Shown here in pieces: positions 2,084-35,984 of a stretch of 64,000 nucleotides of DNA. The stretch is from the NCBI GenBank assembly GCA_016204045.1, contig JACQLQ010000001.1, positions 193,579 through 257,578 of the forward strand, written 5' to 3'. Position 1 is the first letter of the stretch. Each line of letters begins with the position of its first letter. The notes beneath the pieces were generated by a model. That model was not told the origin of the DNA and made no database searches. It saw nothing but the letters and a program-made list of their open reading frames with translations. The translations under genes and the position numbers were made by a program. The DNA comes from Parcubacteria group bacterium (GTDB lineage Bacteria; Patescibacteriota; Minisyncoccia; Phycocordibacterales; UBA2135).

Positions 2084-2482
2084 GGGGGATGATCGGCTTC
2101 GACAAGGGGCGTACTTTGAAACGCGCAGGTAGAGCCGGGGTAACTCTTTAAAAGGCCCCAAACCACAAGTGCAAACAAATTGCGCTCAATCGTTTCTCCT
2201 TACTTTAAGGCGAACGACTTTGCGTTCGTGTACGCTTAAGCGACGAACGTGAACGCTCTCACTTTTGATTTCTGGTAGATGGATGAGAGTGTTATACCAC
2301 CAGGATAGGCAAACGACTCGTTCCGATCGTTTCGCTGAAACCAAGGAGCTCGATGCAGTTCGATTTTGTATCTTTCATACGATCTGCATTTAAATCCGTC
2401 ACATGACGGACTGAAAAATACTAAACCTGTAGATCCGTTTTAAACAACTCTTTGCACGCGGGTTCGATTCCCGCCATCTCCA
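2084..2482 (+). ncRNA. ssrA: tmRNA (ssrA)
   Basis: The 5' end GGGGGAUGAUCGGCUUCGACAAGGG matches the tmRNA consensus GGGGcUGAUUcuGGaUUCGACgGG. The 3' end GCGGGUUCGAUUCCCGCCAUCUCCA is a tRNA-Ala-like T-arm and acceptor. The gene sits next to smpB. Putative tag reading frame GCG AAC GAC TTT GCG TTC GTG TAC GCT TAA at 2210-2239. Confidence 0.85.
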
Positions 2483-2604
2483 TTCGACTCGCCTCTTGAG
2501 GCTCGCTCATGGCAAGCCACCCAAGAAGTCATGCTATTCGCATGGCTTTTTGATTTACGCGAGACGCGAGTCGAATGCCCTGAGCGTTAGTCGAAGGGCT
2601 CGTG

Positions 2605-2610
2605 TATAAT
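2605..2610 (+). promoter_or_regulatory. TATAAT -10 box 6 nt upstream of the GIY-YIG start codon, implying a leaderless or near-leaderless mRNA
   Basis: Sequence gtgTATAATcgaattATG. Confidence 0.35.
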
Positions 2611-2616
2611 CGAATT

Positions 2617-2901
2617 ATGTATTTTGTCTATATGATGAAAAACTCAATAAATAAATTATATGTTGGGATCACTCAAAATCCTGACGCGAGAGCCAGACAT
2701 CATAATGAACAACGCGGAGCAAAATTTACAAAATACAAAACTGATTTTGGTATAGTTTTTCTGGAAAAATACACCACTCTCGCGGAAGCACGAAAACGAG
2801 AAATACAAATCAAAAAGTGGCGACGAGAAAAGAAAGAAAATCTGATTGAGCGATACAGCCAAGGATTGCCGACAAAAATGTCGCAGGTTTCCAAAGAGTG
2901 A
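2617..2901 (+). CDS. GIY-YIG nuclease-superfamily protein (YhbQ/UPF0213-like)
   Basis: The protein begins YFVYMMKN, followed by LYVGIT and a basic KKWRREKKENLI tail. About 94 aa, typical of this family. Confidence 0.75.
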   Translation: MYFVYMMKNSINKLYVGITQNPDARARHHNEQRGAKFTKYKTDFGIVFLEKYTTLAEARKREIQIKKWRREKKENLIERYSQGLPTKMSQVSKE

Positions 2902-3087
2902 GATAGCGAAGCGTCCCGTAATCTCCACTCAACAAAAATGAGCTCGCCACAAGCGGGCCATTTTTGTTGAGTGAAAAATGATGATAAAGAAAGCACCAGA
3001 AGTGTTTGCGAATTGCCGATCGCTATTGATTTTTTTGGAGGAGCTGGTAATCTTCCGATAGATTGATATGGGGTTTCTAGAGAAAAA

Positions 3088-3279
3088 ATGCCACAAAAAA
3101 TAAGCAGGCGTATAAACCTTTGTGATGAAAGAGGTGGTTTTCGGGTAATGGGTGAAGGCGGAATAGCCCTCAAGATCGGTGGTGGTGTGACAGAAGACGA
3201 GCGTAAAGAGATTCATGCGGCAGTGGAAGAGGCTATCAAAAAACTAGGATACGATACTGACTGGATTCCAATATTATAA
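3088..3279 (+). CDS. hypothetical small protein (63 aa)
   Basis: ORF followed by a clean intrinsic terminator. No recognisable domain. Confidence 0.35.
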   Translation: MPQKISRRINLCDERGGFRVMGEGGIALKIGGGVTEDERKEIHAAVEEAIKKLGYDTDWIPIL

Positions 3280-3298
3280 TCAACAAACAACAAACCCA

Positions 3299-3322
3299 AC
3301 TGCACATTCGTGCAGTTTTTTC
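3299..3322 (+). terminator. intrinsic terminator (actgcac-attc-gtgcagt + TTTTTT)
   Basis: 7-bp stem, 4-nt loop, T6 run. Confidence 0.7.
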
Positions 3323-3368
3323 TTTATAAAACACGAAGCACGAGCACATTTTTTGATATACTTGTAAC

Positions 3369-3890
3369 ATGTCAGTTGGTCTTAAACGTGGCACAGTCAA
3401 AGTCATTCCCTATCAGAAGAAATGGGCTAAGGAATTTGAGAAAGAAAAAGCTCGCATTTTGAAGGTATGCGGAGACAAAATCATTGCCATTGAACACATA
3501 GGAAGTACATCAGTGCCAGGATTGGCTGCAAAACCGATCATTGATATTGCGGTCGGGGTAGCAAAGCTTAAGGATGCCGAAAAGTTACTACAACCACTTA
3601 AAAAGATTGGCTACAATTTTTATAAAAAGTTTCAACGCCAGAGATTGTTTATTGCGAAAGGTCCAGATGAGAGACGTACCCACTATCTCCATGTGATGCG
3701 CTACAACGGTTCTAAATGGAAAACAGATCAGCTCTTTCGTAATTACTTGCGCACGCATTCCGCAGAAGTTAAACGATACGCCGATCTTAAAAAAAGTCTT
3801 GCCAAAGAATATGCAGACGATAGAAAGAGCTACTCTGACCACAAAAATAAGTTTATACAATCGATTATTACTAAAGCCCAAAAATATTGA
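3369..3890 (+). CDS. GrpB/UPF0157 family nucleotidyltransferase-like protein
   Basis: HIGSTSVPGLAAKPIIDI motif characteristic of GrpB. Confidence 0.8.
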   Translation: MSVGLKRGTVKVIPYQKKWAKEFEKEKARILKVCGDKIIAIEHIGSTSVPGLAAKPIIDIAVGVAKLKDAEKLLQPLKKIGYNFYKKFQRQRLFIAKGPDERRTHYLHVMRYNGSKWKTDQLFRNYLRTHSAEVKRYADLKKSLAKEYADDRKSYSDHKNKFIQSIITKAQKY

Positions 3891-3945
3891 AGTTTTTTAA
3901 GTCTCCGAATACGCTATACTGTGCTTAGTCGACGAGTACACTAGT

Positions 3946-4296
3946 ATGCCCCACGACATACCGCCGCCAGAAAAGCGTCCTGAACCAGGATACTATTACC
4001 ATTACAAACACGATCCGAACGGACCTGTAAACAATTACGCATATTATATTTACGGGGTTGGTCATCATACTGAAGATAATTGTCGCCCCGAAGACGCATT
4101 CATGCAGGTGTATAGGCCGCTCTACGAAGCATATGTATACAAGAATGGTCGCATGTTTGATCTTCGCCCCCTGCATATGTTCTATGAACTAGCCGAACGG
4201 CATGGGCAAAAAGTGGAGCGCTTCACCAAGATTACTGATCCAGAGGTGATCGCTCTGCTTCGTGAGATTAAAGAGCGGATGTATTCTGACGAATAG
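3946..4296 (+). CDS. DUF1653-like protein
   Basis: GYYYHYKHDPNGPVNNYAYYIYGVGHHTE followed by RPLHMF pattern, resembling DUF1653. Confidence 0.55.
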   Translation: MPHDIPPPEKRPEPGYYYHYKHDPNGPVNNYAYYIYGVGHHTEDNCRPEDAFMQVYRPLYEAYVYKNGRMFDLRPLHMFYELAERHGQKVERFTKITDPEVIALLREIKERMYSDE

Positions 4297-6138: not shown

Positions 6139-7365
6139 TTACTTCGGAAATTGAGAAAGTGCGACAAGAACTCCACTTGTAATATCTTTGTACGTATGTG
6201 CGGCCGTGACTTGGAAGCGAATCTCTTCTTCACCCCTCGGCACAACTGGGTATGTGATGCCCGTCGCGAGAATGTTCTTTTCGAAGAGATGCGCCACCAA
6301 TTTCTGTGTTTTCTCTGTGTCTCGTGTGAGTAGGGGAACGATCGGGTGTTCATCTCCAAGCGTTTCAAATCCACGCGCTTCGAGCCCGAAGCGCAGATGC
6401 TCCGCCAAAGTGCGTGCTATTCTGACGCGTTCGATTCCCTCGAGACCGTCCAAGATCTGAAGGGCGCGCAAAGCGGCGGCCGCTTCGCCTGGAGTTATAG
6501 GGTTTGAATAGATGTAGGTAGGAGCTGTTTCCTTCAAATAAGCAACAGTTCTGCCATCTGCCACAACATACCCCCCATTGACCCCAAACGATTTACCCAA
6601 GGTGCCAATGAGTACATCTGCTTTCGCTCCGACATATTCTTCGGTGCCACGGCCAGTAGGCCCAAATGCTCCAACGCCGTGTGAATCATCGACGACGACG
6701 AACACCCCCTCCTCGTACTTGTCATTATGGGCTCGTGCGATTGCCATTATTTCGTGAAGTGGCGCATGATCGCCGCGCATACTGAAGATTCCATCCGTCA
6801 CAATGCAGGCGCGTTTCGCCATGTGAGCATAGTGATCGAGTGACCACGCAAGCTCACTCATATCGAGGTGACGATAGACGGCACTCTTCACAGGGCGTGA
6901 GAGGCGAACAGCATTGATGATACTGTTGTGGTTGAGTTTATCGCTCACCACTAGTGTCTTGTCAGTGATGAGAGCATTCAAGGTTCCAAGAACAGCAGCA
7001 TATGCGGAGCTAAAGAGTATCGCGTCTTCCCTCTCATGGAATGATGCGAGTCCCCGCTCCAATTCAATATGAGGGGTGGATGTGCCGGAGATGAATCGCA
7101 CCGCTCCTGGGCCAACACCAAAGCGGTGAGTGGCCTCGACCTCGGCTGTGATGACTCGTTCGTCGCAGTCTAGCCCGAGATAGGAGTTTGAATTCATCTT
7201 TAAGAATGTTCTGTCGCCGTGCCCCAAAAGCATAACGCGTGGTCCCGTGCCGTCTTTGGCTGGCACGACAGCGGACACGACGTGTTCATTGCCTTTCAAT
7301 GTGCCAGTAGCACCAAGCTCTCGCAATTTTGCCGAGAAAACGTGAGCGAGCTTCTCTGTGGGCAT
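6139..7365 (-). CDS. kbl: 2-amino-3-ketobutyrate CoA ligase / glycine C-acetyltransferase (class II PLP aminotransferase, 8-amino-7-oxononanoate synthase family)
   Basis: PLP-lysine region TLGKSFG and alpha-oxoamine synthase fold motifs. Adjacent to tdh. Confidence 0.8.
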   Translation of the reverse strand: MPTEKLAHVFSAKLRELGATGTLKGNEHVVSAVVPAKDGTGPRVMLLGHGDRTFLKMNSNSYLGLDCDERVITAEVEATHRFGVGPGAVRFISGTSTPHIELERGLASFHEREDAILFSSAYAAVLGTLNALITDKTLVVSDKLNHNSIINAVRLSRPVKSAVYRHLDMSELAWSLDHYAHMAKRACIVTDGIFSMRGDHAPLHEIMAIARAHNDKYEEGVFVVVDDSHGVGAFGPTGRGTEEYVGAKADVLIGTLGKSFGVNGGYVVADGRTVAYLKETAPTYIYSNPITPGEAAAALRALQILDGLEGIERVRIARTLAEHLRFGLEARGFETLGDEHPIVPLLTRDTEKTQKLVAHLFEKNILATGITYPVVPRGEEEIRFQVTAAHTYKDITSGVLVALSQFPK

Positions 7366-9670: not shown

Positions 9671-10720
9671 ATGGATGCTGAAGAGAACCGCATACCGGAT
9701 GAGGGATTGATAAAGGAAAACCTACTGACGCTTTCTGCTGGGCTCCTTATTGGTGCCTACGCGGGAATAGCGTTCGTAGCGTTTTTTGTGTATGAAGTGC
9801 CCACGCGCGACATCGAGGCACTGAGCGTCTTCTTTAGTGCGGTATCGTCATCAACAAAAGCATTTTTCCAGTTCCTGATACTCTTTACGGCGTTTGCTCT
9901 CCTTGGAGCACTTGCGAGTTACGCTCTGGTTCTTACCCGAACTGTGAACAAACTTCGTCGAGAGGTGGTGGTCGTGCGCACCGTAGACAAATCAAAGGAT
10001 CAGTTCATCTCAATGGTGCTTCACCATATTCGCACCCCACTCGCGGGTATCAAATGGAGTATCAAAGAAGCGTTCAAGGAGGCAGAGAAGCAGAGCCTCG
10101 GCAATGATGGTGTCAAAAGCATCCAAGATGTGCTCCTGGAAAATGAACGTGTGCTTACTGCAGTAGAGCATTTAATCGAAGCATCACAGGCAAGCATGGG
10201 CAGGGTGACCTACAACTTCAAAGTGGTTCCTGTGCAGGATGTGGTTACGCGCGTGAAGGAAATAGTGACCTCCCTAGAGGCGCTCGTCACCGCCAAAGGT
10301 ATTTCGCTCCGATCAGACATCAAGGTGGCGTCTAACTCGTCTGTCAAAGTCGATATGGAAAAAGTAGCGATTGTAGTACAGACGCTTTTTGAAAATGCTG
10401 TGTCGTATAGCGACCCAGGTGGTTCGATCGCGGTAGAAACAGAAGAAGTTGCCTCTCACTTCATCTTTCGCATTACTGACACTGGTATCGGCATTCCGAA
10501 AGAGGATCAGGCAAAGATCTTTCAGCAGTTTTTCCGAACTGAAAGTGCACGACGGAAGGACCCTGGGGGGTTTGGTGTCGGTCTCTTCATTGTAAAAACC
10601 TTTCTTAAAGAACATGGTGGCGATATCTGGTTTACCTCCGAGAGTGGAAAGGGGACAACCTTTAGTTTCAAAATCCCGCTTATTACATCAGAGACAGAAA
10701 AGCATCTTGAAAAGCTATAG
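9671..10720 (+). CDS. sensor histidine kinase
   Basis: H-box VLHHIRTPLAGI. HATPase_c G-boxes ITDTGIGIP and GGFGVGL. Two N-terminal TM helices. Confidence 0.85.
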   Translation: MDAEENRIPDEGLIKENLLTLSAGLLIGAYAGIAFVAFFVYEVPTRDIEALSVFFSAVSSSTKAFFQFLILFTAFALLGALASYALVLTRTVNKLRREVVVVRTVDKSKDQFISMVLHHIRTPLAGIKWSIKEAFKEAEKQSLGNDGVKSIQDVLLENERVLTAVEHLIEASQASMGRVTYNFKVVPVQDVVTRVKEIVTSLEALVTAKGISLRSDIKVASNSSVKVDMEKVAIVVQTLFENAVSYSDPGGSIAVETEEVASHFIFRITDTGIGIPKEDQAKIFQQFFRTESARRKDPGGFGVGLFIVKTFLKEHGGDIWFTSESGKGTTFSFKIPLITSETEKHLEKL

Positions 10721-10821
10721 ATTCGAACAAACAAAAGACCTCCATGGGTTTGACTGTGGAGGTCTTTTGTACTACAACAAAGGGCAGAAGGGGGTGTTTG
10801 CGCACCCCTAAGGAGGCAGAA

Positions 10822-12018
10822 ATGGCGCGCAGTTCTCGTATTGGCATCCTTCGCGAGCGCATGGATGGCGAGCACAGAGTGGCTCTCACACCCGATGGTG
10901 TTCGCGCGTTACGTGCAGATGGTCATATTGTCTATGTTGAGATGGGTGCTGGAGCGGGGTCAGGTTTCTCGGATGATGAATACAGAGCAGTTGGAGCTGC
11001 ACTCGCCCCCACCACTGAACATGTTGTTCGTAACTCAGGCGTTGTCGTCAAAGTAAAGGGTCTTCTTCCCGAAGAATCGCCACTACTCCCACTCCTTCAC
11101 GGCAAAACACTTTGTTGTTTTCCGCACTTTGCTGGTACATCAAGAGAGTGGCTACAACGTTTCTTGGACGAACAAATCACCGTGTTTGGTTACGAGACGG
11201 TCCGCGATGACAACGGGAGGTTCCCCATACTTGCTCCGATGAGCGCGATTGCAGGTGTTGCTGCTGTACAATACGGCGCGCACTATCTTCAGAAATATTG
11301 CGGCGGGCTCGGTGTCCTACTCGGGAATTTTTCACCCACCGGTCACATCATGACGCCGCGGATCCTCACGGATTTTCCAAGGGCACACGTCGTCATCATT
11401 GGAGGTGGTATTGCAGGATATCATGCCGCAGAGACTGCGTGTGGGGCGGGTGCCCTTGTTACCTTGTTTGAGAAAAACCCCGAGACGCGCAAATACCTAG
11501 CGGGGCATTATAGAAACAATCTAAATGTCATTGTTGCAGGAGATCATCCTGATAACAAAGACCTGTTTCCGCAGTCGCTTCAAAATGCAGACATGGTCGT
11601 GAGCGCTGTCGCAAGTCCGGGAGCTCACGCTCCAGTCGTTCTCACAAAAGAACGTGTGCGTTTGATGAAATGCGGAGCAGTTATTGTCGATATCGCTATT
11701 GATCAGGGTGGTTCGGTGGAAGGGATGGTGGGCCCCACGACACACAAGGAGCCCATACGTGTGCTGGAGAACAAAGTCTTATACTGCGCAATCCCCAATA
11801 TCCCAGGACAATTTCCTCGACAATCGACTCCCGCATTCTCACGAGCGCTTCTGCCAATTCTTTCGACACTTGCCGCGGAAGGGTTAACGCTAGGGGTACT
11901 AAGACATCCAGTCCTTGAGTCAGGTATCCAAACGCATACCGGGTTTATCACAAATGTGGCCGTTGCTAACGATCTTGGTATGGTAGACGGTTATCGCAAT
12001 GTAAGAGATGTTATCTAA
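10822..12018 (+). CDS. alanine dehydrogenase / PNT-family NAD(P)-binding dehydrogenase
   Basis: AlaDH/PNT N-domain and the VIIGGGIAGYHAAETA dinucleotide-binding motif. AAGGAGG Shine-Dalgarno before the ATG at 10822. Confidence 0.65.
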   Translation: MARSSRIGILRERMDGEHRVALTPDGVRALRADGHIVYVEMGAGAGSGFSDDEYRAVGAALAPTTEHVVRNSGVVVKVKGLLPEESPLLPLLHGKTLCCFPHFAGTSREWLQRFLDEQITVFGYETVRDDNGRFPILAPMSAIAGVAAVQYGAHYLQKYCGGLGVLLGNFSPTGHIMTPRILTDFPRAHVVIIGGGIAGYHAAETACGAGALVTLFEKNPETRKYLAGHYRNNLNVIVAGDHPDNKDLFPQSLQNADMVVSAVASPGAHAPVVLTKERVRLMKCGAVIVDIAIDQGGSVEGMVGPTTHKEPIRVLENKVLYCAIPNIPGQFPRQSTPAFSRALLPILSTLAAEGLTLGVLRHPVLESGIQTHTGFITNVAVANDLGMVDGYRNVRDVI

Positions 12019-14087: not shown

Positions 14088-14313
14088 CGACCCGTAGCTC
14101 AATTGGTTAGAGCACAGAGCTTCCAATGTCGAGCGAGGATGACAAAAACGAATACATGTGCCCGTAGCTCAATTGGTTAGAGCACAGAGCTTATACCTCT
14201 GCGGTTCCTGGTTCGAGTCCAGGCGGGCACACATTTGTTTTTGTCCCGAGCGAAGGCATTATATCAGTTTGTGATATACTCTGCGGTTCCTGGTTCGAGT
14301 CCAGGCGGGTCGA
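14088..14313 (+). tRNA. tRNA-like gene A, interrupted in the anticodon loop by a 152-nt insert (14126-14277) that contains a complete tRNA. If spliced at the canonical 37/38 position the anticodon would be UCC (Gly)
   Basis: 5' half at 14088-14125 with acceptor cgacccg. 3' half at 14278-14313 with acceptor cgggtcg, the exact reverse complement. D-arm, anticodon stem and T-arm are identical to the nested tRNA. Confidence 0.4.
14158..14231 (+). tRNA. tRNA with anticodon UAU (Ile, AUA-reading), nested inside the locus above
   Basis: Acceptor gtgcccg/cgggcac. D-arm gctc-aattggtta-gagc. Anticodon stem cagag/ctctg with loop cTTATac. T-arm cctgg-ttcgagt-ccagg. Discriminator A. Confidence 0.8.
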
Positions 14314-14322
14314 TTCATAATC

Positions 14323-28155: not shown

Positions 28156-28915
28156 AACGTGCTTCAACGGCGAGGAAGAGGGGAATTTCTTTGCGTGCTC
28201 GATCTTCGCCCTCGGTGCGCGGGCCCTTCTGGCTTTTCTTGTGCGAGATCCACTCCTCCATACGCGTAATAGCGAAGCCCGCCGTACGGAGTGCTTTCGC
28301 AAAGTCCTGGAGCGAACGGTGGAATGTCCACGTGTATGAACTGTCTGCACCGGGATGCATTTCTATTTTTGCTTTCGCGGGAGTGAGGTATTGCTCGACG
28401 CGGCGGTATTGTGTTTTGTTTTTGTCGTCCCAGACCCAGCTTGAATGTTTGGGTATGCGAAAGGCCGGATGATTCACGACAAAGATAAATCTGCCGTCTT
28501 TGGTAAGCACCCTGCGCACCTCTTTGAGTGTCGTGAGAAGGTTCTCGATGTTCTGTAGTGCAAGGATGCACACGACCGTGTCGAAGGTATCGTCGCCGAA
28601 GGGGAGCTTCGCTGCATCTGCGACATGAAAAATTGCTTTCGGAAGTGCGTGCCTAGCTTTTTCTACAAGCGCCTCTGACGCATCAACACCGACGACACCC
28701 GCCCCTTTTTCGAGCAAGTGTTTTGCGAAGTACCCTTGTCCGCAAGCAAGGTCGAGCACCCGCTCTCCCTTCTTGAGCTCTAGGATGCGGAGCAGGTTCG
28801 GCAGGATTACTTTCTCCTGATACGTGTCAGCGCCCGTAAGGTACTCATCGTACCACTCTGCCGACTCTTCCCATGATGTTTTAGTTTGTTTCGGCATAGT
28901 GTAAGTGTACACCAT
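28154..28915 (-). CDS. class I SAM-dependent methyltransferase (Methyltransf_11/UbiE-like)
   Basis: Motif I VLDLACGQGYF. Motif post-I VVGVDASE. Confidence 0.8.
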   Translation of the reverse strand: MVYTYTMPKQTKTSWEESAEWYDEYLTGADTYQEKVILPNLLRILELKKGERVLDLACGQGYFAKHLLEKGAGVVGVDASEALVEKARHALPKAIFHVADAAKLPFGDDTFDTVVCILALQNIENLLTTLKEVRRVLTKDGRFIFVVNHPAFRIPKHSSWVWDDKNKTQYRRVEQYLTPAKAKIEMHPGADSSYTWTFHRSLQDFAKALRTAGFAITRMEEWISHKKSQKGPRTEGEDRARKEIPLFLAVEAR

Positions 28916-29856
28916 TACCCGTGGAGTATGTATTCAACGGCAACGAAAACTATGTAGAGCAAGACAAGGAGAACACCTTCTTTTTTAGTCAGCAGTTTTC
29001 CCGAGCGCATGAATTGGAACAGCACTAAGGCCGATGCGACCATGAACGCGGCGGTGATGTAGACGATCTCTTTGGGAAAGTAAAAAGGGCTAATGAGGGC
29101 CAAGATACCAACAACAATCGTTGCGTCAGAGATGACGGTGCCGAGGATATCGCCCAGGGCAAGCTCATCTCTGTTTTGCCGGACAGCGCGAATGGAGAAA
29201 AGGAGTTCAGGAAGAGTGGTGCCCAAACCGACAACAAGCATGCCGATGAGTATGGGGCTCAAGCTCACCGATTCGGCGAGGGCGATACCGTATTGTACGG
29301 TTAAATGCGAGCCCACAATGAGACCACCCGTACTCAAGAGTAGGTACAAGAGGTTCAAGAGGTAGTGATAGTGGTGGTGTTCTCCCTGCGAAGGGGCGTG
29401 GTGATGATTTTCTCTGAATGTCCAGTAGAAAAAGAAGAGACCAGCGGCGATGAGGAGTACGCCCTCGATTCTCGAGTAGTAGCCATCGAAGCCGACGAAA
29501 ATCGGCAAGGCGAGGAGGAGGGGATACCAGCGGTTCTGTTCGAGGATCTTACTCCCGACTTTTATCCCGCTCACAGTTGCGAAAACGACAATGGCAAAGA
29601 CGAGTGTGAGGTCTGCCACGTTTGAACCGAAAAGTGTCCCCAATCCGAAAGCGGGGACACCGCGTAGCGATGCGTCTATGCCGATAAGTGTCTCCGGAAG
29701 TATGGAAATGACTGCGACAACAAGAAAGCCAACGACATATTTGGGGAGCCGGAGGATGTGCGCAAAATATGTAGCGTATTTGATCGCCAGGTCAGCGCTT
29801 TTAATGACCACAAAGAGCGACGCGGCGAGAAAGAGTAGGTTGGACATGAGTTTCAA
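28915..29856 (-). CDS. Na+/Ca2+ exchanger (CaCA family, YrbG-like) membrane protein
   Basis: Alpha-repeat motifs GTLFGSNVADLTL and GLGTTLPELLFS. His-rich central loop. Confidence 0.75.
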   Translation of the reverse strand: MKLMSNLLFLAASLFVVIKSADLAIKYATYFAHILRLPKYVVGFLVVAVISILPETLIGIDASLRGVPAFGLGTLFGSNVADLTLVFAIVVFATVSGIKVGSKILEQNRWYPLLLALPIFVGFDGYYSRIEGVLLIAAGLFFFYWTFRENHHHAPSQGEHHHYHYLLNLLYLLLSTGGLIVGSHLTVQYGIALAESVSLSPILIGMLVVGLGTTLPELLFSIRAVRQNRDELALGDILGTVISDATIVVGILALISPFYFPKEIVYITAAFMVASALVLFQFMRSGKLLTKKEGVLLVLLYIVFVAVEYILHG

Positions 29857-29921
29857 TTGTACAAAATTGCAGTGTGAGTCGGTCGGGATAGGAGCGACTA
29901 CTTTAGCTAAGTATCGCTGGA

Positions 29922-30365
29922 CTAAGAACCGGGAAGGTTCTTCGATATTTCCTTGTGCTCACTTATTCCCTTGGGTATATAATTACCCACTCTAAGAACA
30001 TGTCCGACCGCAGAAATGAAATTATATTTTCTTGCATATTTTATAAATTTTTTATTTTCCTCAATCATATTTTGTGCTTCAACGACTTTCCTAAAATTAT
30101 CAGCACCTTCGCCAAGAGTTTGGGGGGTTATGGATTTTTCAACCAATTGAACCATCTTTTCAAGTAATTTTTCTAGAAGTGGCAACGAGCGTTCTACTTC
30201 ATCGGCATGTGCATTTAATAATCTTTTTTCTTTCTTTGAAAATATATATATAAGAGTGGCGATTGGTGTTGCGCCACCTACCACAGTAAAAAATGAGAAC
30301 ACGAAAGGTACTGCAATATTATCCGCAACAAACCGTATTAACAGATTTAAGAAATTGGCCAGCAT
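29922..30365 (-). CDS. hypothetical protein with an N-terminal TM helix (147 aa)
   Basis: ORF in the AT-rich island with no recognisable domain. Confidence 0.45.
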   Translation of the reverse strand: MLANFLNLLIRFVADNIAVPFVFSFFTVVGGATPIATLIYIFSKKEKRLLNAHADEVERSLPLLEKLLEKMVQLVEKSITPQTLGEGADNFRKVVEAQNMIEENKKFIKYARKYNFISAVGHVLRVGNYIPKGISEHKEISKNLPGS

Positions 30366-30387
30366 GTTTATAAAATTTGATTAAGTT

Positions 30388-30430
30388 CACAATTTGCCCG
30401 GTCTCTCGGACGAGCGTTCAATCCTGCGGA
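30388..30430. repeat. copy 1 of an approximately 42-nt repeat (cccggtctctcg...tgcggagcgag) resembling a tRNA-Ser 3' end
   Basis: Second copy at 30788-30840. Both lie just upstream of small minus-strand ORFs. Confidence 0.5.
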
Positions 30431-30469
30431 GCGAGTGGAATTCAATTGCCTTTCGGGAATCCACTGATA

Positions 30470-30751
30470 TTAAGAGAAGTCAATAACCACTAGAACCACA
30501 GTGGCAACTGCTAAAATTATAGTGGCAACAGCTAAAGCCCTTGTCCATACCACTAATCTAGAAGATAGCTCAGATGAGGTTTGATTGAATTTTTCCATGT
30601 TCTTATTTAGTTGTTTTGCTTGATTTTCAACTTGTTGTATTGAAATAGTAAGAGCTATCATCGCGTTTGTAGTACCCGTTGTATCAGGGTGTGTACGTAT
30701 ATAGTTCCCGGCGGCAGTTATATAATTATCTATTTTCTTTTCCTTATCCAT
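30470..30751 (-). CDS. hypothetical tail-anchored protein (93 aa, start at MDKEKK)
   Basis: C-terminal TM helix. The longer ORF-track version would run across the tRNA-like repeat. Confidence 0.45.
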   Translation of the reverse strand: MDKEKKIDNYITAAGNYIRTHPDTTGTTNAMIALTISIQQVENQAKQLNKNMEKFNQTSSELSSRLVVWTRALAVATIILAVATVVLVVIDFS

Positions 30752-30787
30752 ACAAATATAGTTTACTAATTGATTATGACAAAGCAA

Positions 30788-30840
30788 CCCCGGTCTCTCG
30801 AGCGCGAAGTTACGATTTGCGGAGACGGGAGGGATAGAAC
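30788..30840. repeat. copy 2 of the approximately 42-nt repeat, including gcggagacgggagg, which is identical to the 3' acceptor/T-stem of tRNA-Ser at 33291-33304 (putative att remnant)
   Basis: Direct comparison with the tRNA-Ser gene 2.45 kb away, in the same orientation. Confidence 0.5.
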
Positions 30841-30924
30841 TCTTTGAGAACCCACGGTTCTCAACGTGGGGCTCCAGTCGGAAGATGCCCTCATCAGGTG
30901 AGCCCCCCTCTTTATCTGGGCACA

Positions 30925-31455
30925 TCAGGGAGTCTGTAAAATTACATCGCTACAGCTCCTCTCACTAAACCCCACCATTTCCAAATTTGAGGCGATCGTT
31001 TTTGAGATGTCGGTGAGGTCTTTGAATACTTGATTTTTTAGTTGGTCTACTGCACGCTGTCCTCCATCAATGCCGACAAAAGGCTCTTGATATTCAAGTC
31101 TCCCAAGTATTCTATTTGCGGCCTCCATGTTGTGTATTGTTGCAATTAAACTCTGCCTCGCAGAAACATCTTTCGCGTATTCGTTATTTATCATACTACC
31201 CCAATTAGAGAAATATTCATCTGTCCGATATCGCGTGTTCCAATTCCATGTTTGTCCCTCACTTTTTGTAAATAACGTGGCGACTCTGTGATTATAGCAA
31301 AATGTGGTTCGCAATGTATCATCGATTAAGTTTTCGTGCCCCAGATATTGCCACAGAGTAAGGGCTATTCCAACGACCACCAGAGTCGGTCCCCAATGTC
31401 GGAAGACAGAGTTTAAGTTTTCTGCAATAGAGCCCTCAGAATCAATTGGTTCCAT
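30925..31455 (-). CDS. hypothetical membrane-anchored protein (176 aa)
   Basis: ORF whose stop overlaps the downstream gene's start (ATGA). One TM helix. Confidence 0.5.
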   Translation of the reverse strand: MEPIDSEGSIAENLNSVFRHWGPTLVVVGIALTLWQYLGHENLIDDTLRTTFCYNHRVATLFTKSEGQTWNWNTRYRTDEYFSNWGSMINNEYAKDVSARQSLIATIHNMEAANRILGRLEYQEPFVGIDGGQRAVDQLKNQVFKDLTDISKTIASNLEMVGFSERSCSDVILQTP

Positions 31456-31583
31456 ATAGGTTCATGACCTTATTTACAATTTTTGTAGAGACAAAAGAGA
31501 TAGAACTGAACCACATAATATTTAAGAGTTTCTTGGGCCGCTTGCCATGTCTCGTTTTGGTGCGGCTCACTCGGCTATTTTAG

Positions 31584-32216
31584 TTACAAGTTTAAATTTA
31601 GAAGCGCCTCCTCGATCGTTGGTAATAATTTTAAGAAAGATTGAGGATTATTTGGGTCGACCCCAGACAAACTAATTGCCTGATTAACAGCGCCCTGAAT
31701 GTTTCCTTGCAATATCGTGTCTGGGTACTTAGACGCAAAATAGACATCGAATAAGCGAAACAACGGGACATTGTGTTTAGTGAGAAGTAGATACATGCGC
31801 GTTGAATCCATCATGTAATATTCTGTTGCCCCGAAGTTGAATTTAATTATTCCATCCGGATCTTTATCGGCGTGTTTAAAAAAGTTTTTGGCTGCATTTA
31901 TTGCTTTGAATACTTCATCCTTTTTTTCTGGCTTTACCCAATCGAGCAACTGGCCATGAACACTCTTTATCTTCTGTTTTTCTCCGATATCGTTCAAAAT
32001 TTGAAAAGCTGCACCCGCGAGTGTGTGTATCGCAATAGGGTCTCCGCCCCTAAAAAATAAATTTATAGCTGTTTCGAGCTGACGCTTGGCGGCGTCCAAT
32101 TTTGAAATATGTAATTCCATGATTTTTTTGTAGAAATCTTTGTTTGCGGGGACGTGAGGATGCGAACCTTTAATGTGGGACAGGAAGGAATACGTGCCCC
32201 TCTTTTTCAACAACAT
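31584..32216 (-). CDS. hypothetical protein (up to 210 aa; real start may be the internal MELHI)
   Basis: ORF in the AT-rich island. Confidence 0.45.
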   Translation of the reverse strand: MLLKKRGTYSFLSHIKGSHPHVPANKDFYKKIMELHISKLDAAKRQLETAINLFFRGGDPIAIHTLAGAAFQILNDIGEKQKIKSVHGQLLDWVKPEKKDEVFKAINAAKNFFKHADKDPDGIIKFNFGATEYYMMDSTRMYLLLTKHNVPLFRLFDVYFASKYPDTILQGNIQGAVNQAISLSGVDPNNPQSFLKLLPTIEEALLNLNL

Positions 32217-32685
32217 CTTTCAATGAAAGATCGTAAAACTTGACTCGTTTCCCATTGTCGAAGGTAATAAAGTATGGCTGACAGTACGGACCTTGGTCTT
32301 GTCTCCCCGACATCGCATCTTTGTGAATCCGAGCGAATTCTTCGAGCGTATCGCCAATGACGATACCGCAGTGCTCAAGACCGGGAGGGTATGGCACGTT
32401 TGGTTTCGGCGGCATGAGTTCGATCAAATCAACCCTGAAGCCGTTGAGCAAAGAAAGAGGTTCTCTGAGTAGCAACTTTGAGATTGGTCGTCCGTTGTGC
32501 TCATTTTCTACATATGAAACGCAATGCTTTTTTATATCCTCACGTAGTCGCTCGTATGCTTCAAAGGTTGTGGTACGGACGCCGAGATGACTTATGGCAT
32601 AGCCGGCAATATCAATCCCAAGCCCTTTGAGTCGACTGACTATATCTTGGAAAAACGATTTGTAGTCTCCGATGAGTTCTTCCAT
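32170..32685 (-). CDS. hypothetical protein (171 aa)
   Basis: ORF in the AT-rich island. No recognisable domain. Confidence 0.45.
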   Translation of the reverse strand: MEELIGDYKSFFQDIVSRLKGLGIDIAGYAISHLGVRTTTFEAYERLREDIKKHCVSYVENEHNGRPISKLLLREPLSLLNGFRVDLIELMPPKPNVPYPPGLEHCGIVIGDTLEEFARIHKDAMSGRQDQGPYCQPYFITFDNGKRVKFYDLSLKDVVEKEGHVFLPVPH

Positions 32686-32799
32686 AGTAAGTTTATTCTA
32701 TCTGCGGTGAGGGTTGGTTTAGAACCTTGCTCGTACAAGTATTGTAAGGGTTTTTTGAGCTTTTTCCTAGAGTGCAGCTTGACTGGAGTCGATCGCAAC

Positions 32800-33249
32800 T
32801 TAAAATAAGCGTTTGCATCTTCGAGATCCGCAGCCGCATTTAATCACTCCGCCACCTTTATATGAAAAATCAGCAGTTAGTTCCTCTCCCCCAAGGATTT
32901 TCTTCTTTGCGATCATCACTAATTTATCTAGTATCGTACAATTTGGGGTGCATGAATGATTTACAAAATCACCGGAGTCTAACTCCGTTGTACTCTTTTC
33001 AGCTAACCAAAAACCTGGGTAAACTTCGATAGCATAATTTGAGGAAATACGTCTGGGTAAACTCTCCAGCTCTTTCGATGTCATCGCGTGGCCACCCCAA
33101 ACAGCAACTACAGTACCTTTTTGCAACTCACTCGTAGCGAATAAACCTATCCCATGGATCGAGCTCGGTCGAACTTCTGTATTTGGAGATACATAGTTAT
33201 TTCTTCTGGGCTTTTCATTTATTCGTTTGATAATTCTTTTATAGTCCAT
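32800..33249 (-). CDS. SET-domain protein (putative protein-lysine methyltransferase) with a post-SET Cys cluster
   Basis: IHGIGLFA, NHSCTPNC and C-terminal CGCGSRRC motifs. Confidence 0.75.
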   Translation of the reverse strand: MDYKRIIKRINEKPRRNNYVSPNTEVRPSSIHGIGLFATSELQKGTVVAVWGGHAMTSKELESLPRRISSNYAIEVYPGFWLAEKSTTELDSGDFVNHSCTPNCTILDKLVMIAKKKILGGEELTADFSYKGGGVIKCGCGSRRCKRLF

Positions 33250-33289
33250 GCACGAGAATCACGCTTCGTAGAAGCTTCGAATGTAAAAC

Positions 33290-33381
33290 TTGGCGGAGAC
33301 GGGAGGATTCGAACCTCCGAGGGGGTTTAATCCCCCTAACTCCTTAGCACGGAGCCGGTTTCAACCACTCACCCACGTCTC
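33290..33381 (-). tRNA. tRNA-Ser (GCU), type II with a long variable arm and CCA encoded
   Basis: Reverse complement reads GGAGACG-tg-ggtg...gctcc-gtGCTaa-ggagt-tagggggattaaaccccct-cggag-gttcgaat-cctcc-cgtctcc-G-CCA. Confidence 0.85.
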
Positions 33382-33448
33382 CAATCCACACAAAATAGCA
33401 CATTTTTCTGGCGATTTAAACCTTGCGCCCAGAGCCTGACCGTGTAGA

Positions 33449-33715
33449 GTGCAAAGTAGAAGGATCGTCACTGTGTACAGGAGATTCGTCGTGACCAAGA
33501 GAAACACACCGCTGTTTGCCATGTTTGCCGGATTTACCCCCACAGGTAGCACAGACGGCGTCTCTCATGCGTTACATTCCGGTTCCCCGAATTGTCCGAG
33601 TTGTGGCGCTCCACCGAGTGAACATGAAGTGAGGAATCACGATCTTGCGGCTCACGACGGCGATGTACACTGCAAGCGGTGTGGTGCGTACGTGAGGATG
33701 TATGACGCTGGCTAG
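33449..33715 (+). CDS. putative small zinc-ribbon protein (CPSC...CKRC)
   Basis: Two CxxC pairs. The start codon is uncertain. Confidence 0.3.
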   Translation: MQSRRIVTVYRRFVVTKRNTPLFAMFAGFTPTGSTDGVSHALHSGSPNCPSCGAPPSEHEVRNHDLAAHDGDVHCKRCGAYVRMYDAG

Positions 33716-33862
33716 GTTCGATAACGAGGTTTTCGCGCAAAGCGAAGACCTCTTTTAATTAATGCGTCTGTGTACGCCGCCGCTTACTTCGCGCCAACTG
33801 TGCAAGAGATGCGGTGAAAGTGGCTATCACAAAAAAATAAGACCTGCGTTATAATAGATTCT

Positions 33863-34945
33863 ATGACCCCGCGTAATGTTTTTGTAGGCGCAGCCCTCAT
33901 TTTTGTGATTGCAGCAGGAGTTTTGTGGAGTGAAAACTCTGGCACAACGCAAGCGCAGCTTGGAAGTTTGAGCAAAATCAAAGATCACAAGAACTGCGAT
34001 CTGGTACCGCACAAGAGACAGTTTTCACATCAGCCATATTATACGGGGCCATTGATTGACGCCCACCTGCACATGCCGGTTTCTTCTAAAATTGTAAGCG
34101 CTGTAGGGAAAAAGATTGGCTTCAGTCAAATGACAGCTTTTGGCGGCAAGGTGACACTCGATTATATAATGTGTCTCTTTCAGAGCGAGGGGATAACACA
34201 GACAATAGGGTTTTTTATGACCACTCCTTTTTCTTCTTCGGCAGAGCTTGGTACGGCAAAAAGAGCGGAAAAAACATATCCCAAGAGAATAGCCGTTTTC
34301 TATATGCCGGGGCCATATGAAACGCTTAGGGTAGCTCCCGAGAAAGTGAGAAGTGTCATTGAAAAAAACAAAGCCCTTTTCAGGGGCATCGGTGAGTTAA
34401 AGAGTTTTGATGGCTCCTCCCTCGACAATCCCTATTTTTCAGAGATGTTCAAAATTGCAAACGATAACAACTTGGTGATAATGATGCATCCGTATCACAA
34501 CCACAAGGCAGTTGTGGAAAAGATAGTGAAAGAATATCCAAAGGTTACGTTCCTGTTACATGGCGGGCATGATAGTGAGTGGATCACTGATGTGATGAGG
34601 AAGTATAACAATGTGTACTATTCAATCGATGCCGATATCGCTGCTCTTTACGGTTGGGAGCGTCAACACAAGGACAAAGAACCCACCAAAGAAGAATTTC
34701 TCGCCTATCTCCATGACAATTTTGATGCACAGCTCAATGAACAAATAAGGTACTGGGGGCCCAAGATTGCGTCTTACCCAGACAAGTTTATGTGGGGGAC
34801 GGATCGTTGGTACGGCTGGCATTTTGATTATGAGGTTGGGGGGCTTATAGAAGAGTTTGGCAGAACATTTATCGGAAGACTGGATCCTTCTATTCGCGAA
34901 AGATTTGCTTATAAAAACGCAGAGAGGTTGTTGCAATCGAGGTAA
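33863..34945 (+). CDS. secreted or membrane-anchored amidohydrolase-2 (TIM-barrel metal-dependent hydrolase) family protein
   Basis: N-terminal signal-anchor. IDAHLHM metal-binding motif, and HGGHD followed by WGTDRWYGWHF. Confidence 0.65.
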   Translation: MTPRNVFVGAALIFVIAAGVLWSENSGTTQAQLGSLSKIKDHKNCDLVPHKRQFSHQPYYTGPLIDAHLHMPVSSKIVSAVGKKIGFSQMTAFGGKVTLDYIMCLFQSEGITQTIGFFMTTPFSSSAELGTAKRAEKTYPKRIAVFYMPGPYETLRVAPEKVRSVIEKNKALFRGIGELKSFDGSSLDNPYFSEMFKIANDNNLVIMMHPYHNHKAVVEKIVKEYPKVTFLLHGGHDSEWITDVMRKYNNVYYSIDADIAALYGWERQHKDKEPTKEEFLAYLHDNFDAQLNEQIRYWGPKIASYPDKFMWGTDRWYGWHFDYEVGGLIEEFGRTFIGRLDPSIRERFAYKNAERLLQSR

Positions 34946-35015
34946 AATAAGTGTTTAAGGCAATTGCAGATATGTGTTTAGTTGTACATCATTCGTCTTT
35001 TGGTATGATTCATGT

Positions 35016-35984
35016 ATGAGTATCGAAAGGCCACGACGTGGAGAAAAAGCGCCGAGTCAGGAAAAGCTTCCCGAAGCGAAGTTTGCTGTCGGCATAGATA
35101 AGGGAAAACTTCGCGCCACAGACATTGATGCCATCGTTGCTACGATGCACTTCCCGATGGGAGAAGAAGGTGAGCGCGAAGCGAAAACCCAGGAGTTGCG
35201 CAAGCTCGTAGAAACCTTTGCCCAACTACCTGAACATCTGGAGTTTAAACCGGGAACCACAATCATTGTCGGACCAAACGGGGCTGGCAAGACAACACTC
35301 GCGAAAGCTGTTCTCTACAGTATTATCATGGAGCAAAGGATTGCACAGGAACAAGATTCTGGCAGACCTTTTACGAGAGCTGACGCAGAGAAGGAGATTT
35401 TTGAGCCAAAGGGCATGGCATCTTTGTTTTTTGGGAATAGAGTAAAAAGTGACGGACCAATAGTTGGTCATATTGCCCAAGCGCTCCACACGGAGAAATA
35501 CAATAATATTTCGGACGGAACCCCACAGTATTGGGATCTTGCGCAAGAAGCGGGAGTGACAGCAATGCTACATAACCACAGGACCTCAAGTCTTCTCGAA
35601 GAGAGCGAGGGAGGCTATACCTCGAATTTCAAGGGAGAGATGAAACGTACAAGAGGTACCGGTTCGAAGGCAATACATGTAGCGAGGAACTCAAATCGTC
35701 AGACACTCGACAGAGGCATGATGCTTAAAATTCGTTACATGAAAGAACAAGCTGAAGGCAAGCCACAAGTAGGATTCTTTGATGAACCAGAAGCGGGCAT
35801 GGACCCGCGTCGCCACATGGGGCTGCTTGCAGAAGTCGATGACTTTTCAGGGCCAGAATCTATACGGATCGTCGTCACCAACTCCCCAGTGCTTTTTGCT
35901 GACCCAAACGTGGCAAGGATTGACCTCGCCTTTCCAGAGCGCGGCATTTTCTACCCAAGAGATTATCCTGAAGACAAGAACTAG
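35016..35984 (+). CDS. P-loop ATPase of the ABC/AAA_21-like class (standalone, no transmembrane partner)
   Basis: Walker A GPNGAGKTT. Walker B-like VGFFDEPEAGMD, with D-loop. No nuclease or TM domain. Confidence 0.6.
   Translation: MSIERPRRGEKAPSQEKLPEAKFAVGIDKGKLRATDIDAIVATMHFPMGEEGEREAKTQELRKLVETFAQLPEHLEFKPGTTIIVGPNGAGKTTLAKAVLYSIIMEQRIAQEQDSGRPFTRADAEKEIFEPKGMASLFFGNRVKSDGPIVGHIAQALHTEKYNNISDGTPQYWDLAQEAGVTAMLHNHRTSSLLEESEGGYTSNFKGEMKRTRGTGSKAIHVARNSNRQTLDRGMMLKIRYMKEQAEGKPQVGFFDEPEAGMDPRRHMGLLAEVDDFSGPESIRIVVTNSPVLFADPNVARIDLAFPERGIFYPRDYPEDKN

Follow-up and report, generated by a model that had tools for sequence, protein, structure and literature searches.

The subject of this work is an AT-rich block of six small genes that lies beside a tRNA-Ser(GCU) gene in a 64,000-nucleotide (nt) stretch of DNA from a groundwater Parcubacteria group bacterium (assembly GCA_016204045.1, contig JACQLQ010000001.1, positions 193,579 to 257,578), which is called the window here. 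The block is a foreign and variable island, as its composition, its variation between relatives, and one module (module 3) far more similar to its counterpart in another genus than the core genes are all indicate. The best explanation, to which a probability of about 0.6 is assigned, is that it is a multi-module island lacking a recombinase of its own and built at tRNA-Ser(GCU) by site-specific recombination in the T-loop, probably by large serine recombinases acting in trans or since lost. An initial annotation of the same DNA had proposed that a foreign block entered the 3' end of this tRNA gene by site-specific integration, and this proposal is upheld by real repeats, variable content, a module held in common with another genome, and recombinases found at this tRNA end elsewhere.

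The island extends over positions 29857-33290 and its guanine-plus-cytosine (GC) content is 0.413, compared with 0.494 for the whole window. In 500-nt segments the values range from 0.37 to 0.46 within the island and are around 0.50 on both flanks, in agreement with the AT-rich block from about 29.9 to 33.3 kb reported in the initial annotation. Six consecutive small open reading frames (ORFs), numbered here as modules 1 to 6 from the tRNA side, fill the block, and all of them are encoded on the minus strand, the same strand as the tRNA, as had also been described. The tRNA-Ser(GCU) gene is intact, abuts the island as its anchor and target, and was located at 33291-33382 (minus strand) by ARAGORN and Rfam (RF00005, 53.3 bits); its position next to the block had been recognised correctly, with coordinates (33290-33381) that were one base off. 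At the other end, the next gene after the module 6 ORF is a core gene for a Na+/Ca2+ exchanger (28915-29856), where both the rise in GC and the synteny with locus L008 resume. The junctions of the units share one layout, namely ORF, short flank, repeat, 15-75 nt, and the next ATG. Promoter and terminator signals were not enriched over chance in the island. The window sequence is matched without differences by short Logan contigs from SRR12113383/84.

The repeats at these junctions are copies of the end of the tRNA gene. The repeated segment comprises its last 25 nt, from the T-loop to the CCA end (33291-33315, GGTTCGAATCCTCCCGTCTCCGCCA), and each of the five intergenic gaps of the block contains one copy on the gene strand. 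Three of the internal copies (X2, X3, and X5) are statistically solid, and the other two (X4 and X6) are supported by their context. X2 (core 32702-32726 in an element at 32701-32760, minus strand) matches the tRNA end at 17 of 25 positions, and its core is preceded by a small hairpin (TACAA-TAC-TTGTA) and AGCAAG, which gives an element of about 58 nt with the pattern TTACAMTNNTTGTAYRAGCAARGTTCTARACC. The best partial copy is X3 (32144-32168, minus strand, GGTTCGCATCCTCACGTCCCCGCAA, 21/25), located between the stop codon of the module 2 ORF, which encodes a YecM protein, and the ATG at 32120, the start codon in the Logan gene call (178 amino acids, aa). X4 (31483-31507, minus strand, AGTTCTATCTCTTTTGTCTCTACAA) shows 14/25 matches to the tRNA end by hand count and 19/25 to X5; its six differences from X5 are all transitions towards A/T, as expected for decay in AT-rich DNA. 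X5 (30817-30841, minus strand, AGTTCTATCCCTCCCGTCTCCGCAA, 20/25) conserves the 3' strands of the T-stem and the acceptor, and it is placed either in an intergenic gap or in the N-terminal extension of the next ORF, if the 151-aa reading of the latter is taken.

X6 (30423-30448, minus strand, CAATTGAATTCCACTCGCTCCGCAGG) is a gapped, degenerate copy that reached an nhmmer E-value of 0.06 with a model that includes X6 itself, and its support comes from its position and from the motif that follows it. This motif, the 12-mer CGAGAGACCGGG, is found about 16 nt after X5 (30789-30800, minus strand), where it repeats the acceptor-like part of X5 imperfectly and in inverted orientation, and again about 14 nt after X6 (30397-30408, minus strand). 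It has three independent occurrences in the 823 kb compared, two of them in the window and one at the left junction of the island in locus L105, which belongs to another genus and is described below. The spacing of the first five copies, counting the tRNA end, is 558-666 nt, and X5 and X6 are about 390 nt apart. A very decayed sequence (..CTATCCCGACCGACTCACACTGCAA) at 29863-29895 (minus strand), which by eye resembles X5 and the L105 repeat L105_Xb, is tentatively considered a possible terminal copy.

Two of these copies had been seen in the initial annotation. The 14-nt recurrence of the tRNA 3' end at 30819-30832 is exact and extends to the 20/25 match of X5. The second, degenerate copy placed at 30388-30430 is real and weak, and resolves into the gapped X6 and the 12-mer at 30397-30408. 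The copies at 32144-32168 (21/25), 32702-32726 (17/25), and 31483-31507 were missing from it. The idea of one or two integrations has therefore to be replaced by that of a multi-module array, since tRNA-end copies are found in all five gaps and three of them are significant.

Regarding statistical support, the 14-mer GCGGAGACGGGAGG has two exact matches in the window (33293-33306 and 30819-30832), and when up to two mismatches are allowed there are 6 matches versus 0.36 expected, a number reached by 0 of 100 shuffles. Scores of at least 20/25 were obtained only by X3 and X5 in a search space of 128 kb. A position weight matrix (PWM) built from the three strong copies (tRNA end, X3, and X5) ranked X2 first and X4 third among the other positions of the window, both in island gaps and on the correct strand, and the intergenic gaps of the island represent about 0.4% of all positions scanned. 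In leave-one-out nhmmer searches X2 and X5 were both recovered at rank 1 (E 0.03 and 0.009, respectively) and X3 at rank 6.

The repeats also share states that the tRNA does not have. GTTCTA is present in X2, X4, X5, and L105_Xb, and CGCAA in X3 and X5, with a decayed ACAA in X4. These common states, together with elements common to both islands, favour sites carried by the elements over the independent decay of host tRNA ends. The possibility that the repeats fold as tRNA-like minihelices was ruled out, because the 5' strand of the T-stem is absent and they are thus fragments. It was also considered whether a break in the Logan contigs at 33294-33319 reflects population heterogeneity; this was rejected, since the contigs show 100% identity with the window and a 30-mer common to tRNA-Ser genes accounts for the break.

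The most informative comparison is with locus L105, from GCA_016176785.1, a member of a different Parcubacteria genus whose PilM is 60% identical to that of the window. Here the tRNA-Ser(GCU) gene, located beside ComF, is followed by a block of 1.4 kb with two co-oriented ORFs (172 and 181 aa) and a GC content of 0.38, versus 0.555 for the 16.5-kb locus. A direct repeat of about 115 nt, beginning in the T-loop, flanks this island on both sides; its distal copy has 7 differences in the 22-nt tRNA-like part (AGTTCTAGACCGCCTCACACCG) and is identical over the next ~95 nt. A third tRNA-end-like sequence is found between the two ORFs. It was also observed that the ~95 nt after the L105 tRNA (2700-2815), duplicated at 4075-4190, contain an inverted T-loop/acceptor copy (CGACGGGAGGATTCGAAC) and the start of an 83-aa ORF.

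The 181-aa ORF of L105 (2862-3407) and the module 3 ORF of the window (31584-32120) present 81.3% nucleotide identity over 550 nt and 84.9% amino acid identity, and thirteen syntenic core proteins of the same two loci are 50-76% identical. The GC content of module 3 is 0.395 and 0.383 in the two copies, and that of their hosts 0.494 and 0.555. The homology begins within ~20 nt of the ATG, spans the ORF, and fades over the 3' flank up to an AGTTCTA repeat. The neighbours of module 3 are different in the two genomes: in the window the YecM gene is upstream and a 176-aa ORF downstream, and in L105 the 172-aa ORF is upstream and chromosomal DNA downstream. As the homology comprises the ORF and its 3' flank and the neighbours differ, the unit of exchange would be one ORF plus its 3' flank.

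The site elements were shared as well. X2 is homologous to the elements found after both ORFs of the L105 island, and L105_Xb, the one after the 181-aa ORF, matches the window best at 32704-32757 (nhmmer E 8e-4, 44/63 identical), the next match having an E-value of 5. This best match, which includes the hairpin TACAA-nnn-TTGTA, is placed after the SET-domain ORF (module 1) and not after the homologous ORF. The position aligned with L105_Xb after the homologous ORF is that of X4, with weak homology from the stop codon to the AGTTCTA motif.

The variability of the locus was also examined among other relatives. The neighbourhood formed by tRNA-Ser(GCU), ComF, and PilM/N/O/B/T recurs across Parcubacteria loci, and RecG is near the tRNA in several of them, with side and strand varying. 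The DNA 3' of the tRNA differs, with about 2 kb of genes of normal GC and no AT-rich block in L050 versus 10 kb including the island in the window. In the closest relative, GCA_016204005.1 (PilM 89% and RecG 82% identical), neither of the two syntenic contigs reaches the tRNA, and the last ORF of one of them is AT-rich (GC 0.34-0.39) and preceded by a T-loop-like sequence (GGTTCAAAG...). No empty site was obtained from the same genus, as the contigs of the closest relative end before the tRNA. A search for relatives with the Na+/Ca2+ exchanger as the query gave a sole match, 30% identical, from Lachnospiraceae. In the Parcubacteria locus L094, tRNA-Ser(GCU) has next to its 3' end a gene (10389-11063) that looks, from its sequence, like a transposase of the Y1 type associated with IS200 or repetitive extragenic palindromic (REP) elements, and it may represent another type of mobile gene at this hot spot.

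No recombinase was found in the window by Pfam searches of about 50 ORFs, which covered all but four of those of 250-450 aa, nor by tblastn with four large serine recombinases, as the initial annotation had stated. The four remaining ORFs of that size are genes of the pilus and deacylase types, as judged by eye or by synteny, and the other unscanned ORFs were read by eye. The indication of the enzyme that could have been involved comes from the 12-nt junction directly after the tRNA (33279-33290, minus strand, AGTTTTACATTC in gene sense). The last 30 nt of the tRNA plus these 12 nt (33279-33320) are 100% identical over 42 nt to loci L045, L077, L021, and L078, where the tRNA bodies are different (anticodon CGA versus GCU). 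In elements of this type the 12 nt encode the last codons of a recombinase (..ECKT), and in L057 a looser similarity continues a few bases past the junction. A 24-codon tblastn match at 33249-33320 was considered as a remnant of a serine recombinase gene and rejected, given that only the 12-nt junction matches and the rest is tRNA.

These loci form part of a set of 90 metagenome loci retrieved with the 25-mer of the tRNA 3' end, mostly tRNA-Ser genes with various anticodons that resemble those of the Candidate Phyla Radiation (CPR). In 14 of the 90 (L017, L021, L023, L038, L045, L047, L051, L057, L065, L068, L075, L077, L078, and L080), a large serine recombinase gene lies directly 3' of the tRNA in antisense orientation, with its ORF entering the tRNA by 47 nt. 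The domains of these recombinases are Resolvase, Recombinase, and Zn_ribbon_recom, and three more loci (L024, L046, and L095) have such a gene within about 1 kb. Recombinase domains are the most frequent Pfam families in the 127 ORFs located up to 2.6 kb downstream of these tRNAs, and Phage_integrase is not in the list of families of those ORFs. Although the att terminology used in the initial annotation usually implies a tyrosine integrase, a large serine recombinase is the likely enzyme. L024 is a 1.66-kb element with a recombinase as its only gene, placed between the tRNA end and a partial copy of it; minimal elements of the same kind may be present in L023 and L080. In each of L013, L024, L090, and L092 the partial copy starts precisely at GAATCC, a boundary that puts the crossover at TTC|GAA, within the T-loop.

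The best NCBIfam matches of the CPR recombinase are CcrC, XisF, and CcrB, all far below the cut-off, and a viral collection searched with the recombinase gave one match, 25% identical. Related recombinases abut clusters of tRNA-Leu, tRNA-Cys, and tRNA-Arg genes in L043 and L086. The AT-rich block of L086 was evaluated as a possible group of cassettes and discarded, as it is an operon of an extracytoplasmic function (ECF) sigma factor and MacAB. Similarly, L077 (Ga0210031_1001458) is not an invertible segment; its identical tRNA-Ser copies, 2618 nt from each end and in opposite orientation, correspond to a palindromic assembly artefact. Moreover, GC-rich inserts of 120-150 nt separate the tRNA-Ser gene from a partial copy starting at GAATCC in L090 (1528-1675), L092 (3921-4065), and L013 (minus strand, ~6660-6810). 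The L090 insert resembles the sequence just past the L105 island (GATTCGAAC...GGGTCGGAGAACGGGAGTTCTCC). These inserts could be excision scars, miniature elements, or a small structured RNA.

The mechanism proposed for the island is as follows. Small AT-rich units would be inserted by site-specific recombination with the crossover in the T-loop of the tRNA (TTC|GAA), most of them consisting of one ORF co-oriented with the tRNA and a short 3' flank with a tRNA-end-like site at its end. A new end from the T-loop to the CCA would be brought in by each unit, so that the tRNA would stay intact and remain a target, and the previous end would be pushed inwards and left as a partial copy. With a crossover in the T-loop the attB half-sites lie wholly in the tRNA, so an element that restores the tRNA also restores the target and units can accumulate. 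Repeated insertion, probably including composites of two ORFs, would have led to six ORFs and five tRNA-end copies in varied states of decay. The enzyme would be a large serine recombinase of the family found at this tRNA-Ser end in other CPR genomes, provided in trans or since deleted. The participation of composites is considered because the ORFs of the array can be grouped in three pairs, each with a strong copy at its boundary and a weak one in its interior, and the L105 block is also a two-ORF unit. This suggests, by analogy with composite islands of the staphylococcal cassette chromosome (SCC), that composites excised at alternative repeats may also move. That a serine recombinase made this array, the order of the events, and mobilisation in trans are what we infer from these comparisons.

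Several results weigh against this explanation. The island contains neither a recombinase gene nor a recognisable remnant of one beyond the 12-nt junction, so the link with serine recombinases is circumstantial. Matches to the tRNA do not fall steadily with distance (17, 21, 14, 20, and then a gapped copy), which means that simple accretion of one unit at a time does not explain the array. X4 and X6 were not recovered in the leave-one-out nhmmer searches and are not significant alone, and the possible terminal (seventh) repeat at 29863-29895 is not significant either (nhmmer E 39). A comparable array is present in only one other genome, that of L105, and the runs of both genomes have neighbouring accessions (SRR121133xx and SRR121134xx), a numbering that suggests that they probably come from one project. 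In the 90 loci, mismatch counts, PWM scans, and tRNA masking revealed only single partial copies, and AT-richness 3' of tRNA-Ser is not general (mean difference 0.008, p 0.43). Finally, the perfect identity of the ~95-nt repeat in L105 would suit a tyrosine recombinase or homologous recombination too.

An alternative explanation is that of one or more classical tRNA islands of the phage or integrative and conjugative element (ICE) type, whose displaced identity segments would be seen today as the partial tRNA copies and whose tyrosine integrase would since have been lost. Such a process, in which the target is regenerated and a fragment displaced, is the textbook mechanism for tRNA islands (Islander, PMC4383910). 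The identical repeat of L105 is nearer to an identity segment than to the att site of a serine recombinase. The part of the tRNA from the T-loop to the 3' end is a common target of tyrosine integrases, which also counts in favour of this origin. Nevertheless, Pfam scans of about 50 ORFs revealed no tyrosine recombinase in the window, none appears among the frequent families of the 127 downstream ORFs, where large serine recombinase domains rank first, and the 12-nt junction matches elements with serine recombinases, and a tyrosine integrase seems unlikely overall. A non-mobile origin, with vertically inherited, lineage-specific small genes and with repeats that are signals for RNA processing or termination or simply due to chance, would agree with the absence of a recombinase and the weakness of two repeats. 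CPR genomes contain many small orphan ORFs, and the co-orientation with the tRNA would suit co-transcription. It is however very improbable, given that the GC content is 8 points under that of the genome here and 17 under the L105 locus average, module 3 is far more similar than the core genes, the content at this tRNA varies between relatives, the strong copies greatly exceed what chance would give, there is no enrichment of terminator-like sites, and the repeats, with no 5' strand of the T-stem, cannot fold as tRNA-like minihelices.

Another explanation, also improbable, is an integron-like platform in which the tRNA-Ser end is a dedicated acceptor for single-ORF cassettes, each with a site that mimics the tRNA end, expressed by read-through and moved by a dedicated recombinase encoded elsewhere. 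Five co-oriented one-ORF units of 0.56-0.67 kb are each bounded by a repeat, with a sixth distal to X6; the 5' leaders are very short, with no promoter signal above chance; ORF, 3' flank, and site move together, and the neighbours differ between genomes. The 58-nt element with hairpin and site is found on unrelated cassettes in two genera, and the repeats have derived states in common that the tRNA does not show. On the opposite side, only one cassette is found in two places and arrays occur in two genomes only, the 90 other loci have no arrays, the site elements are heterogeneous (X3, X4, and X5 have no hairpin), neither IntI nor the GTTRRRY/RYYYAAC architecture of attC is present, read-through expression is purely inferred, and the decay of larger elements plus composite transfer fits the same facts. 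The fuller form of this idea would be a capture platform of CPR bacteria, integron-like and not an integron, with the tRNA-Ser end as the acceptor, tRNA-end-mimic cassettes with or without a hairpin, a large serine recombinase that reshuffles single genes in trans, and read-through from the tRNA promoter; we regard it as speculative and give it a small chance. The recombinase-less island built in the T-loop, probably by large serine recombinases, is retained as the best explanation.

The locus can also be compared with systems already described. The genomic islands targeted to tRNA and tmRNA genes and catalogued by Islander (PMC4383910) share with it the insertion at the 3' part of the tRNA, which is regenerated by the incoming DNA, the displaced tRNA fragments as direct repeats, the deviant composition, and a content that varies between relatives. 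Unlike them, there is no integrase gene here, the units have one ORF and about 0.6 kb, a run of internal repeats is present, and the recombinases at this site elsewhere are large serine and not tyrosine enzymes. In kind, the locus is a tRNA-anchored genomic island in a fine-grained form with one gene per unit.

In its way of working, it would be most like SCC composite islands, which include recombinase-less pseudo-SCC units (bioRxiv 10.1101/336396; PMC10581047). In SCC, successive insertions also lead to tandem arrays delimited by repeats of the target end, and large serine recombinases insert at the 3' end of a conserved housekeeping gene, which can be likened to the tRNA-Ser end. Some SCC units have no recombinase and rely on one in trans, as proposed here. 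The island, whose target is the T-loop of a tRNA and not rlmH, whose units are smaller by a factor of 10-100, and whose host is a CPR bacterium with no recombinase known in its genome, is an analogue and not a member of the SCC family. A third parallel is found in the Prochlorococcus islands seeded by tycheposons, where later integrations push older ones inwards and leave partial tRNAs scattered (bioRxiv 10.1101/2020.12.28.424599). Those genomes are also streamlined, with few classical mobile elements and with islands beside tRNA genes that include tRNA-Ser, and a minority of tycheposons uses large serine recombinases (bioRxiv 10.1101/2020.12.28.424599). Unlike tycheposons, which have their own integrase and usually replication genes, neither is present here and the modules are single small ORFs.

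With integrons the likeness is one of architecture only. There are clusters of attC sites lacking integron-integrases (CALINs), reportedly so defined by Cury et al. in 2016. As in integrons and CALINs, the island presents co-oriented and mostly promoterless one-ORF units, each followed by a site-like element, in an array with no recombinase nearby, and one cassette, in two genomes only, has different neighbours. Unlike integrons, no tyrosine recombinase of the IntI type was found by Pfam scans in the 64-kb window, the acceptor is a tRNA gene and not attI, and only two arrays of the present kind are known. The attC sites of integrons form R''-L''/L'-R' hairpins with a GTTRRRY core, whereas the sites described here are mimics of the 3' end of a tRNA. 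Their sequence GTTC(G/T)A.. departs from GTTRRRY at position 4, there is no inverse core, and small adjacent hairpins accompany only X2 and X5. No paper was found on such arrays or on the association between recombinases and tRNA-Ser in CPR bacteria, in a literature search with incomplete coverage.

Concerning the cargo, the module 1 ORF (32800-33249, minus strand, 149 aa) encodes a predicted SET-domain protein methyltransferase, as the initial annotation had recognised (PF00856, E 4e-13, 50.0 bits versus a cut-off of 22.4). Residues 27-148 match the SET and post-SET region of MLL/KMT2 and SETD2 in the PDB (best E 6e-11), the motifs NHSCTPNC and post-SET CxCx4C, as CGCGSRRC, are found in the translation, and the Logan gene call gives the same protein. 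Judging from its sequence, this is a complete SET plus post-SET domain carried on a variable island. A role of this protein as an effector in host interaction or chromatin mimicry, raised in the initial annotation, is hypothetical. The initial annotation had considered that no other ORF of the block has recognisable domains, which holds for modules 4 to 6 and fails for modules 2 (32170-32685) and 3. The module 2 ORF (minus strand, 171 aa) encodes a protein of the YecM/VOC fold (PF06185, E 9e-21), and its matches to VOC families in NCBIfam are all below the cut-off.

The module 3 ORF (minus strand, 178 aa), the one in common with the L105 island, encodes a HEPN-fold protein of a family with about 500 unannotated members and has a HEPN-like four-helix fold. 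The invariant residues are R13, Q14, H32, and N79-x-F-K-H-A-x-x-D87, and the canonical HEPN motif Rx4-6H is not among them, so it could be a variant HEPN or a non-nuclease HEPN. A Foldseek search of the PDB with the model of the 178-aa protein gave no match. Homologues of this protein are found as a tandem pair in L109/L110 (5430-6531), beside a type I restriction system, an AAA_13 ATPase, and DUF3800, and in L114 (6001-6552), near an AAA_15/23 ATPase. The islands with these homologues also carry large serine recombinases. This suggests an association of the family of ~500 with defence islands.

The remaining modules encode small proteins with a transmembrane segment predicted by eye. It is N-terminal in module 4 (30925-31455, minus strand, 176 aa), which has no family match and is a called gene in Logan contigs, and in module 6 (29922-30365, minus strand, 147 aa), which has no family match and is called as a gene in L005. 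In module 5 (30470-30751, minus strand) it is C-terminal, and the protein has 93 aa from an internal ATG or 151 aa from 30925; which start codon is used is uncertain, the long form being that of the Logan gene call, and only weak sub-threshold matches were obtained. PADLOC, PHROGs, and NCBIfam gave no match for five of the six cargo ORFs, and in a viral collection the tRNA 25-mer, the X2-type pattern, the SET protein, and the 178-aa protein were all without a match.

Other features of the window should also be mentioned. The 5' side of tRNA-Ser (33449-35984) is variable too, with an 88-aa Zn-ribbon ORF, an amidohydrolase (GC 0.43), and an AAA ATPase before ComF; the ATPase shows weak P-loop matches to the MADS3, PtuA, and GajA models. 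None of these genes is present in L105, and the closest relative, L103, has only the ATPase and an unrelated 148-aa ORF. The window also encodes a tRNA-Ile(UAU) (14158-14232), an anticodon that is uncommon among bacterial tRNA-Ile genes. A copy of its own T-arm and 3' end (21/25, ~14290-14314) starts 58 nt downstream, just before a CorA gene at 14323, and it may be a second att-like scar at another tRNA. Furthermore, in the region 2085-4000 a transfer-messenger RNA (tmRNA) gene (2085-2485, tag ANKLRSIVSPYFKANDFAFVYA) precedes an AT-rich stretch (GC 0.41-0.44) that contains a GrpB-family gene at 3369-3890. This stretch is a possible island, judging by its composition, and no copy of the tmRNA 3' end with at least 17/25 matches was found near it.

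CPR bacteria (Patescibacteria) have tiny genomes that are generally thought to be poor in mobile elements, and how they gain accessory genes is poorly understood. The locus described here suggests one route, a hot spot in the T-loop of tRNA-Ser served by a widespread family of large serine recombinases, and it also suggests that very small modules without a recombinase can pile up there and be exchanged between genera. The cargo, which includes a SET methyltransferase, a HEPN-fold protein, and small membrane proteins, provides candidate symbiosis or defence factors. If the architecture with one gene per unit is general, it would represent a second cassette-array system, independent of integrons, and would provide a compact set of attB, attP, and recombinase for genetic tools in organisms that at present have none.

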